This document shows, in pieces, positions 26,985 through 29,472 of a DNA stretch of 64,000 nt (the stretch's first letter is position 1; every line of letters begins with the position of its first letter). The DNA is taken from the NCBI GenBank assembly GCA_010093815.1, contig ML996565.1, one strand, 5' to 3'. The position numbers were made by a program, and so were the translations under genes. The notes under the pieces were generated by a model. The model worked only from the letters and a program-made list of their open reading frames with translations. It had not been told where the DNA came from and searched no databases. Source of the stretch: Pseudovirgaria hyperparasitica. Lineage: Eukaryota.

Positions 26985-27362
26985 TGACATATATCACATA
27001 CATGCTCTATCAGGTTAGGCTGTACTTATCCCTATGGGGCATGGATTGGAACAGTCACTATCTTGTGGTTGTGTCTGAATCATAGAGTAGTGTGTGTGAC
27101 TCGTAGCAGATGTATAGTGTGCCAGGTGAGCGTCTTTTGTTAAATTTCACAGTTGTTCCTGATCACTCTGCGCATGTTCACTGTTGTTCTCCGCATACCA
27201 ATAACAGAAATAGACCCTTGAGTGCACAAACAAGGCCCCACTAAATACTTGACGCGCCACGCCAAACCACCTCTTAGCAACACCACCACTCAGCTTGCTC
27301 CCAACTGTTCAACCTGCAAATATCTTGTTCCTTCCAGCTACCGTAACCACTTCGCATACATC

Positions 27363-28361
27363 ATGTCTGACTCGCCTACAAGCAATCCCGATGAGGCCGA
27401 CCAGTCCAAGAAGATCGCATTCCGTTTCTGCTCCGAGTGGTGAGTAATTGGTCGCGGCGCAACGCGTGCTTCTTCCTCAAGATCTGCCGAATTTGCTAAC
27501 TTTCTATCCAGCTCCAACTTGCTCTACCCAAAAGAGGACAAGATAAACGCCAGGCTCATGTTCGCCTGCCGTACCTGCCAATATGCCACCGAAGCCCTCA
27601 CTCCCATGGTGACCCGCAAGGAAGTCAGCAGCTCTGCTGGCGACACTGCTGGTCTGACGGATGATATTGGTCAAGATCCAACGGTTAGTGAAGACCCTGA
27701 GTCCGACGATGAATATTTCATGAACGACGATGGCGCCACTATCCGTGGAATCTGTACCATGTGTGGCAATGTGATCTTCTGTGAGATCTGCGGGCAGCAG
27801 AGCGACTGTGGCCTTGTCCTCGAGGTTGAAGATCAAGAATGCTCTACGTCAACTCATGCTCATCCTCGTTACGAACGGGAGCTCACGCCTACGAGCATGA
27901 GTGATCGTGACACCACTGCTCTCCCGCAGGCTCCAGCTGCTGGTAAAGAGCAGGATGAGCCAGTCTGCTCTGCGAGCAGCGTCCCGAGCTGCACCTGAGC
28001 TGCAATCACTGTATCGTCCACATCCAGCAACTGCTTTATCAAGCCTACTGTCTTTGTAGTAGATGAACTCTGCTCAGAATGTTCGGCTAACATCCGGTTT
28101 TGTCTGATCTAGCTGCCCCGAGTCGAAAAGCTTTGTCCCAAATGCGGCGAGAACGAAGCTGTCTTTTTCCAATCGCAGCAGCGGTCCAGCGAAACGGGAA
28201 TGGTGAGCTCATAATTTCTTCGTATGGTTGTCATGACGAGAGATTTTTATACTATATCTACCCCCTTGATCTGCGTCTTTCGCTCACAATCATAGAAATT
28301 ATACTACGTATGTTGCACATGTGGGCAAGTATGGCAAGATGCCACGCCTGCTAAACGATAG
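27363..28361 (+). CDS. RPB9: RNA polymerase II subunit Rpb9
   Basis: Exons 27363-27439, 27512-27683, 28113-28202 and 28296-28361 give 134 aa: N-ribbon FCSECSNLLYPKE...FACRTC, linker DPT|LPR, C-ribbon CPKCGENEAVFFQSQQRSSETGM|KLYYVCCTC. Confidence 0.95.
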
Positions 28362-28660
28362 CCATATTACGAGGTTCGGTTCTAAAAACGCACATGTAAA
28401 AAGGTGTCAAGGGTTTCGAGGAACACTGGGAAATCGGCATCAACCTGGAGTTTGGAGTCAAACACATCTGCACTTTGGAGAAATCATGGGCCCTGGTTGG
28501 CTAGGAGTTAGTTTACGCTGCAAATACCCGAAAATGATGGAGATTGTTGATACAATTCTATATACAAAATGTTCTGACCCCGGTGCAAAACCAGCCGTGA
28601 TTTTGATATTGCTTGCTCGCGCCTAACAACTATGCTATCATCCCCGTGGATGTCTTCCCA

Positions 28661-29157
28661 TTATACGTGCATTGGTGCTAGCGAAAGAATCTTAGACCAC
28701 CGCGTTTTCGCCAACTCTCTTCCTACGACACCTGTTCACACGTTAGCTTTATTCTAACAAGCCCATGAGCCATGCTCTATAATTCTTCTCCACTCCACCC
28801 TATGCCCTTCAGAGAATGTTCAAACTCACCAGTAGCCCTCGAGCCAATCGGCTCCGCCGCCTTGTTGATCAGAATACACGCATTGTCATCGAACCGCACC
28901 ACACTGCCATCCGGCCGCTGCAGCTTCTTCTTCGTCCGCACCACCACGGCGTGTCTGATGTCTCCGCGCTTGACCTTGTGCGGCGCATTACTCGAGCCCT
29001 GCTTGTCTGCCTTGTAGTTCCTCTGCTCCTGCACGACAACGATTATGCGGTCTCCGATGGTTGCGCCGGCTTTGCTTGACTTGAGGGTTGCGATGCATTC
29101 TGCGATGGCGCCGCCGGAGTTGTCGAGGACGTTGAGGAGGGTTTTGAGCTGGATCAT
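28661..29157 (-). CDS. MRPL38: Mitochondrial ribosomal protein uL14m
   Basis: MIQLKTLLNVLDNSG...KRGDIRHAVVVRTKK...DGSVVRFDDNACILIN...PIGSR. One GTGAGT intron; last exon VVGRELAKTRWSKILSLAPMHV*. Confidence 0.93.
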
Positions 29158-29472
29158 GGCGAGGATGGAGGTGGAGGATCCCGGTTGAGGGATGCCCCAA
29201 GGAGGCTCAAGGGAGGAGAACGGGGAAGATGGAGAGTGAGGTCGTCGTAGGTAGGTTGTCGTCGTCGCGTTGTGGTTGAAGTTGAATGTAATTCGAAACG
29301 AACATTTGAGCACGGTTTGATACGATCTGATATCGGTGATTTCTCGGATCTCCGCCCGTCACCGAACCGAGGCCTGATTCATGGCACGATGCTCCTAAAG
29401 CTCTAATCTATATCATGCATCAGCATTGTTTTTGTTCTACTCATCCTCTTGTGCAGTCGACAGAAACACACA

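Follow-up and report, generated by a model that had tools for sequence, protein, structure and literature searches.

RPB9, which encodes the Rpb9 subunit of RNA polymerase II (Pol II), occupies positions 27363-28361 (+) of the window, the whole 64,000-nucleotide (nt) stretch of contig ML996565.1 from Pseudovirgaria hyperparasitica (Dothideomycetes, Acrospermales) analyzed here. We conclude, with a probability of roughly three in four, that RPB9 of the Pezizomycotina is a two-product gene: splicing of intron 2 yields the canonical subunit, while retention of the same intron yields an alternative Rpb9 that would be translated and incorporated into Pol II. The preliminary description of this locus had proposed intron 2 as the source of an alternative, Cys-rich C-terminal module and, through retention, of a second Rpb9 isoform. 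This core idea is supported by open frames in 38 of 38 intron-bearing loci, the spacing of the Cys residues, the ratio of non-synonymous to synonymous substitution (dN/dS), and an RNA contig that retains the intron. One gene produces two mRNAs here, and the retained intron holds a conserved frame under selection; the character of that sequence suggests that the alternative isoform is translated.

The annotation holds the spliced Rpb9 alone, as a 134-amino acid (aa) NCBI protein (P0002) to which exon 2 is 100% identical. We set the gene model by RNA-derived contigs with joints at GT..AG. Exon 1 (27363-27439, +) begins with the ATG at 27363-27365 and the P0002 start MSDSPTSNPDEADQSKKIAFRFCSEC, and its 3' end forms the first two bases of a split Cys codon (joint 27439|27512). 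Exon 2 (27512-27683, +) carries the remainder of the N-terminal zinc ribbon (Zn1) and the linker, ends in ..GQDPT, and by itself matches Zn_ribbon_RPB9 (PF02150; expect value (E) 4e-7, 30.2 bits, cutoff 25.2). Exon 3 (28113-28202, +) encodes the first half of the TFIIS-type C-ribbon, LPRVEKLCPKCGENEAVFFQSQQRSSETGM, and matches Zn_ribbon_TFIIS (PF01096, E 2.9e-9), a family also listed for P0002; the coding part of exon 4 (28296-28361, +) adds the second half and ends at the stop TAG, 28359-28361. Intron 1 (27440-27511, +; 72 nt, GTGAGT..AG) and intron 3 (28203-28295, +; 93 nt, GTGAGC..AG) appear in the RNA contigs in spliced form only. The spliced product contains the PF01096 C-ribbon and the alternative isoform lacks it, since the stop codon of the latter at 27996-27998 precedes exon 3.

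Intron 2 (27684-28112, +; GTTAGT..TAG) appears in the RNA contigs both spliced and retained, and its structure agrees with the preliminary description throughout. The donor GTTAGT at 27684 follows straight after the ACG (Thr) codon of ..GQDPT, the branch-site-like GCTAAC and the acceptor AG are found at 28086-28091 and 28111-28112, and the GT..AG joint made by the RNA contigs skips exactly 429 nt. The intron is in phase 0 at DPT|LPR, as exon 3 opens at 28113 with CTG CCC CGA (LPR), and it is unusually long as had been noted, 4.6 to 6 times the length of introns 1 and 3 of the same gene. Translation through the 5' splice site, with GTT AGT read as Val-Ser, gives 104 residues from 27684 and then a TGA at 27996-27998. 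This alternative coding extension (27684-27998, +) joined to the first 83 residues (P0002 boundary T83 | L84) makes the expected read-through product of 187 aa. The tail contains SEDPESDDEYF, then the motif C-x2-C-G-x4-C-x2-C-G, CTMCGNVIFCEICG (27753-27794, +), whose four Cys form a putative zinc knuckle, and then SDCGLVLEVED, each in the order first described. The rest of the intron (27999-28112, +) is non-coding.

Open frames of at least 104 codons from the donor were found in 0.99% of 20,000 mononucleotide shuffles of intron 2 and in 0.58% of 20,000 first-order Markov simulations of it. This chance figure of 0.6-1% is only suggestive because the case was chosen after being seen, and it is the cross-species evidence, rather than the shuffle test, that decides that the open frame is real. 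Searches for RNA elements in the region were negative: no Rfam family was found in 27200-28500 (two matches only, scoring 18.6 against a gathering threshold of 39 and 16.2 against 50), and the intron 2 RNA folds no better than shuffled sequence (z -0.65). A scan for bacterial promoters and terminators found 0, its bacterial models being irrelevant to a fungus.

To place the intron in a wider context, metagenome contigs were scanned with an Rpb9 alignment, which gave 48 loci that were sorted by tblastn and frame reading. A GT donor directly follows the DPT codon in 38 of the 48 (L010-L047); L001-L008 are intron-free and resemble complementary DNA (cDNA), L009 is a cDNA-like variant, and L048 is a distant homologue without the DPT|LPR intron. 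Early stops in orthologous introns had been named as the outcome contrary to the proposal, and none was found. The frame runs through the donor in all 38 loci with the intron, five of which are still open at the contig end, and the remaining 33 all stay open for 39-230 codons before a stop inside the intron. For the 30 loci in which exon 3 could be located, intron 2 measures 186-830 nt, far above introns 1 and 3 of the window, and its non-coding remainder past the stop measures 14-352 nt in the other species. The donor is GTTAGT in the window and GTTGGT or GTGGGT (GTKGGT) in most loci, and is constrained to encode Val-Gly or Val-Ser.

The metagenome set includes near-duplicates, and with the window's tail counted it reduces to 24 distinct tails in our alignment (A3). 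The CxxCG element is present in all 24, and CxxC-x3-8-CxxC in 16 of the 24, in this sample drawn from an exon-based scan. Every distinct tail is acidic, with 14-33% Asp plus Glu and 2-15% Lys plus Arg (n=24). The Cys spacing is conserved as had been proposed: across 126 sequences C81 and C84 never vary, and each of G85, C90 and C93 occurs in at least 90%.

Two further observations were made on these loci. The RFCSEC|SN junction is continuous in most of L010-L047, so most of these loci lack the window's intron 1; in the metagenome sample intron 2 is more widely kept than intron 1, the DPT|LPR intron being present in 38 of 38. Locus L009 is 99.9-100% identical to L004 but for an in-frame gap of approximately 58-63 nt (21 residues) that spans the junction of exons 2 and 3. 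This gap is not bounded by GT..AG, and its two ends have a short GCC microhomology in common, making an assembly or template-switch artefact more likely than splicing.

The window's 104-residue tail alone was also searched with phmmer against 1.84 billion representative proteins, yielding seven matches at E <= 1e-3. Six of these consist of an Rpb9 N-ribbon, DPT and a tail, with total lengths of 153-208 aa. Their tails carry a block like FCTMCGQEIFCEICGQE(S/T)DxG..LEVxD and match the window at 44-66% identity across 32-51 residues; the six include two public gene models, from Macrophomina phaseolina (EKG10879.1) and Trichodelitschia bisporula (KAF2400711.1). The best-conserved block of the window's tail, IRGICTMCGNVIFCEICGQQSDCGLVLEVED (27741-27833, +), shows 48-66% identity to the Dothideomycete read-through models P0005, P0008, P0009, P0010 and P0124. 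The remaining phmmer match, P0004 (E 1.5e-6), is a 481-aa repeat protein in which the tail matched four repeat stretches and which has no Rpb9 part; it was judged spurious.

A profile of 30 isoform sequences (A2) matched 1163 proteins at E <= 1e-10 among 5225 candidates, and we examined 125 proteins, 119 of them new from the best 120 of the 1163 and six being the phmmer relatives. The residues after DPT in these 125 proteins are VG in 104, VS in 19, VR in one and AS in one, and the LP of the spliced form in none. CxxCG is present in 124 of the 125. Named Sordariomycete sources are Colletotrichum, Diaporthe, Cytospora, Sporothrix, Podospora, Chaetomium, Trichoderma atroviride, Cordyceps and Xylariaceae, and named Dothideomycete sources are Lophium, Macrophomina, Trichodelitschia and P. 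hyperparasitica itself. The preliminary description had mentioned read-through tails in Rpb9 models of other ascomycetes, and these database proteins from Sordariomycetes and Dothideomycetes confirm them.

Comparison of tails between loci indicates purifying selection. Tail dN/dS is 0.07 between L023 and L029 (67.2 synonymous and 27.8 non-synonymous differences over 151 codons), 0.12 between L029 and L030 (24 synonymous and 10 non-synonymous differences), 0.16 for L022-L029, 0.27 for L013-L017, 0.31 for L021-L027 and 0.45 for L013-L016. Across pairs with at least 13 differences the range is 0.07-0.52, below the value of 1 as the initial proposal implied; very close pairs hold too few changes to be read in this way (L038-L039, 0.57 from six differences; L016-L019, two non-synonymous and no synonymous). 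Exon 2 is far more constrained than the tail (dN 0-0.022). Differences at codon positions 1/2/3 number 21/6/68 for L023-L029, 7/2/25 for L029-L030 and 45/31/91 for L022-L029. Indels between close pairs are 3 nt long inside the open frame (L029-L030, L017-L018) and 1 nt long past the stop (L030-L045, L038-L039). This pattern of substitutions and indels is the signature expected of a sequence translated in the sense frame and differs from what an RNA element or antisense gene would show. An antisense stop-to-stop frame of 114 codons does lie opposite exon 2 and the tail (window 27504-27848, -), and the third-position bias of sense-frame substitutions argues against its being a gene, pointing instead to a side effect of coding composition. 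On these alignments, purifying selection has kept the frame open and preserved both the motif and the acidity of the tail across many fungi.

These data also bear on whether the frame could be open by chance in a long, lineage-specific intron, such as one recently gained or derived from an introner-like element. A rate of 0.6-1% per intron is not negligible genome-wide, and a word-indexed search gave no relative of the tail. Against this, the intron position, open frame and motif are common to dozens of divergent loci and more than 100 database proteins from two classes, and the intron RNA, as noted, folds no better than shuffled sequence. Recent intron gain is argued against by a position shared by 38 loci and two classes. 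The tail relatives, the 38 open loci, the dN/dS values and the Cys conservation together make a chance frame so extremely improbable that we regard it as ruled out.

Two runs, X1 and X2, cover the locus; both come from one sample in one study, and the kind of run is not on record. Their contigs derive from RNA, because all three introns are skipped at GT..AG and the upstream flank is uncovered. Contigs with the spliced exon 2-exon 3 junction have a depth of 516.6 in X1 and 339.8 in X2. X1 also contains a 488-nt contig that runs continuously from 27654 to 28141 through the retained intron 2 at a depth of 141; introns 1 and 3 are not covered in this run, the small bin values there being exon bases within those bins. 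Splicing of intron 2 is thus incomplete in this RNA sample, where essentially complete splicing had been named as a contrary result. Going by the X1 depths about one-fifth of molecules retain intron 2, contig depth being a poor measure of level. X2 contains the spliced form only; the lack of a retained contig in this run does not show that retention is absent.

Retention was also found in another species. Contig L045 matches the genomic locus L030 at 96% identity, lacks the 55-nt intron 3 of that locus and contains the 746-nt intron 2. It is a processed mRNA that selectively retains intron 2, since intron 3 has been removed and intron 2 kept, and its contig-name prefix is shared by the intron-free loci L001-L003. 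In both retained contigs (X1 and L045) the full intron 2 has the downstream exons attached; polyadenylation inside the intron, the other route that had been proposed, was not seen in the contigs but may occur. The existence of both mRNA forms is known from these contigs, which represent one sample here and one contig in the other species.

Analysis of the tail itself returned no known family. No Pfam family matches the tail of the window or of eight relatives, with sub-threshold zinc-finger noise only (Zn_ribbon_Nudix, E 0.04-0.38; DZR, 0.25; zf-C3HC4_3, 0.092), and PF01096 in particular has no match in the window's tail or in the tail region of those eight. Comparison of the tail with a protein atlas gave a best score of 0.77 and no lead, and a sequence profile search of the PDB gave a best E of 0.14, to Rrp5, which we judged spurious. 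An origin of the tail by duplication and decay of the C-ribbon was rejected, as hhalign of the tail against the Rpb9 C-ribbon profile gave a probability of 3% over 12 columns. An AlphaFold model of exon 2 plus tail built with 126 sequences has a predicted local distance difference test (pLDDT) score of 82-89 for the N-ribbon, and residues 81-100 score 84 and 77; a model built with 30 sequences was similar. The best match in a structure search was Schizosaccharomyces pombe Rpb9 (3h0g_I; Z 3.2, root-mean-square deviation 13.5, 66 residues aligned), which covers the N-ribbon and linker only and barely tests the knuckle. As modeled, the tail is a short Cys knuckle within an acidic, probably disordered chain, and zinc binding by the four-Cys motif is plausible.

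Several observations weigh against a functional second isoform. The case for the protein is built from sequence and RNA contigs. The retained contig is present in one of the two runs, both from one sample and study, with depth a poor measure. Outside residues 78-100 the remainder of the tail is modeled at pLDDT 44-64; outside the motif the tail evolves fast, with a mean column identity of 16% and dN/dS as high as about 0.5. The second Cys pair is missing from 8 of the 24 distinct tails, so a four-Cys zinc site is no universal requirement and the argument for zinc binding is weakened. The four-Cys pattern does occur in 122 of the 125 database proteins, a figure biased upward because this set tops a ranking made by a profile that contains the motif, and the metagenome count of 16 of 24 is fairer. 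Named species are drawn from two classes only, and 18 of the 125 public models carry the tail as an insert before the C-ribbon, with both ribbons present. The word-indexed protein search with the tail gave three candidates, none of which scored; this null reflects a limit of sensitivity, since HMMER over all representatives found relatives. Messenger RNAs with a stop upstream of a spliced junction and a long 3' untranslated region (UTR) should be targets of nonsense-mediated decay. The retained RPB9 mRNA, with its stop upstream of the intron 3 junction and a long 3' UTR, may be such a target.

Some of these points would fit retention that is unproductive or regulatory, in which a long intron with a weak donor is spliced slowly and the retained RNA is pre-mRNA or a decay substrate that tunes Rpb9 dosage, with no functional protein made from the intron. 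The retained contig is a minority form seen in one of two runs, the stop upstream of a spliced intron suggests a decay substrate on general grounds, and most of the tail is predicted to be disordered. However, a regulatory intron needs no open frame, yet 33 of 33 stop-bearing loci are open for 39-230 codons with third-position bias, 3-nt indels inside the frame and dN/dS of 0.07-0.5, and the first Cys pair of the motif is invariant at the peptide level in 126 sequences. L045, as a processed mRNA with intron 3 out and intron 2 kept, also weighs against this explanation. We therefore consider unproductive retention quite unlikely.

The insert-type models suggest a different product, in which an alternative donor close to the 3' boundary of intron 2 leaves the tail between the Zn1/linker region and the C-ribbon, with plain retention as a by-product. 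The 18 models of this type come from Colletotrichum, Podospora, Chaetomium and their relatives. Examples of 228-287 aa are P0072, P0094, P0026, P0037 and P0134 (Colletotrichum, Podospora, Parachaetomium and Diaporthe batatas), while models from the same genera end inside the intron; P0072, for instance, reads ..SWPTFQLA|LPRSNKEC.. where its sibling P0066 ends ..SWPTFQLAVSQ. As gene predictions, such models imply that a short sub-intron is removed from the 3'-terminal part of intron 2. By eye, the window contains no phase-0 GTRNGT-type alternative donor in 27684-27995, ahead of its TGA, the sole GTAAAG, at 27943, being in phase 1. The window's RNA contigs are either fully spliced or fully retained, the intronic stop is present in 33 of 33 complete loci, and L045 keeps the whole intron. 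An inserted tail as the functional form is thus very unlikely, and given the 18 models the form that is made may differ between lineages.

We return to the two-product gene as the favored reading. When intron 2 is spliced, the product is the canonical 134-aa Rpb9 of Zn1, linker and TFIIS-type C-ribbon. When intron 2 is retained and introns 1 and 3 are removed, the ribosome would pass the 5' splice site, reading GTT AGT as Val-Ser, and translate the 104 intron codons to the TGA, 114 nt before the acceptor. The resulting 187-aa product would keep Zn1 and the whole linker and replace the C-ribbon with an acidic stretch, the four-Cys motif and a tail that is acidic and mostly disordered. With Zn1 and the linker still in place, this isoform should take the single Rpb9 site on Pol II through them. 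Part of the Pol II pool would then lack the C-ribbon and expose a new Cys/acidic tail near the jaw, to which a partner or a basic surface could bind. The balance between the isoforms would be set by the splicing efficiency of a long intron whose donor is constrained by its codons, and it is plausible that a non-optimal donor and the length of the intron cause partial retention.

In yeast, the Rpb9 C-ribbon is linked to fidelity, the response to TFIIS and start-site choice. An Rpb9 without this domain can nonetheless be functional, as Zn1 and the linker of yeast Rpb9 (residues 1-52) are sufficient, and Zn2 dispensable, for ATG1 transcription and autophagy (PMC9638876). The alternative protein could also be real and work outside Pol II, as a free factor that uses Zn1 and linker, or the tail, in some other way. 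Its tail belongs to no known family, which would suit such a role, but the isoform keeps Zn1 and the complete linker; the constraint on exon 2 (dN 0-0.022) does not discriminate here, exon 2 being common to the canonical form. We regard a role outside Pol II as unlikely.

Extending the two-product reading, filamentous ascomycetes may possess a splicing-controlled, switchable Pol II subunit in which the C-ribbon is swapped for a Cys knuckle and acidic tail at the jaw. The distinct Pol II population could recruit a partner, such as a repair or initiation factor, via acidic-hydrophobic stretches, or the tail could occupy a DNA-binding surface, and the system would date back at least to the divergence of Sordariomycetes and Dothideomycetes. 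We offer this fuller picture tentatively and hold it to be somewhat doubtful as a whole.

The flanks of the gene were also inspected. An X1 contig over exon 1 starts at 27321, preceded by a 25-nt loose end resembling a sequencing adapter, so the assembled transcript begins approximately 42 nt upstream of the ATG; this may be the 5' end, a contig being no proof. Downstream, a convergent neighbor on the minus strand (window 28780-29358, -) encodes a Ribosomal_L14 domain protein (PF00238, E 1.4e-34), probably mitochondrial L14. RNA contig cover is unbroken from RPB9 exon 4 to at least 28700, and the contigs give no strand. Either the RPB9 3' UTR is at least 340 nt long or the transcripts of RPB9 and the L14-domain neighbor abut or overlap.

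Each core subunit of Pol II is generally taken to exist in a single, unvarying form. Here a second form of Rpb9 seems to be kept under purifying selection in a fungal group that is both large and of economic importance. If this isoform assembles into Pol II, splicing would be a means of changing the properties of the enzyme, and if the subunit is indeed switchable it would offer a rare instance of a core Pol II subunit with a domain-swapped isoform. Errors made by polymerase can be regulated by differential subunit expression, as stated in PMC4868539. There is also a consequence for annotation, as public RPB9 models exist in three incompatible forms, canonical, read-through and with the tail as an insert, and many "RPB9" entries lack a C-ribbon because the predictor chose the retained form. 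We found no description of the tail isoform in the literature on Rpb9 covered, which leaves out subscription journals. The sequences are already public as automatic gene models, and reading them as a second isoform appears to be new.

Compared with canonical Rpb9/POLR2I (PF02150 plus PF01096), the alternative product comes from the same gene and shares the first 83 residues, Zn1 and linker, but lacks the TFIIS-type C-ribbon and has 104 intron-encoded residues outside Pfam. Its tail stands at the same place in the protein as the C-ribbons of TFIIS, Rpb9, A12.2 and C11 (PF01096) and likewise begins with a CxxCG knuckle. In contrast to those ribbons, with which it has no detectable homology, the tail has its Cys pairs 5 residues apart, as opposed to approximately 24 in the ribbon of this gene. 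Exitrons are coding sequences that can be spliced out of an exon; they are stop-free, and both forms share the downstream frame. RPB9 intron 2 resembles them in being both intron and coding sequence and in its length of 429 nt, a multiple of 3, but differs in the stop before the acceptor in 33 of 33 complete loci.

Two fungal systems for comparison are described in PMC3597508. Alternative splicing of SKI7/HBS1 is conserved over Ascomycota and beyond and resembles RPB9 as an ancient, conserved fungal event that gives two proteins with different domains, whereas it uses alternative 3' splice sites instead of retention and concerns an unrelated gene family. The nearest precedent is PTC7 of the Saccharomycetaceae, where the retained intron of the S. 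cerevisiae gene is translated into a second functional isoform that is conserved in the family. In both genes two proteins would come from splicing or retaining a single intron whose frame is conserved between species, and in PTC7 the intron-encoded peptide alters the action of the protein, as it would in RPB9. The PTC7 intron is 3n nt long, stop-free and adds an internal transmembrane helix, whereas RPB9 intron 2 is also a multiple of 3 (429 = 3 x 143 nt) but contains the TGA at 27996-27998, and with a stop in 33 of 33 complete loci the whole C-terminal domain would be swapped. The RPB9 event further differs in occurring in the Pezizomycotina, in at least two classes, and would be a deep, well-conserved addition to the short list of fungal splicing events that diversify the proteome, of which PTC7 and SKI7/HBS1 are the examples given in that source (PMC3597508).

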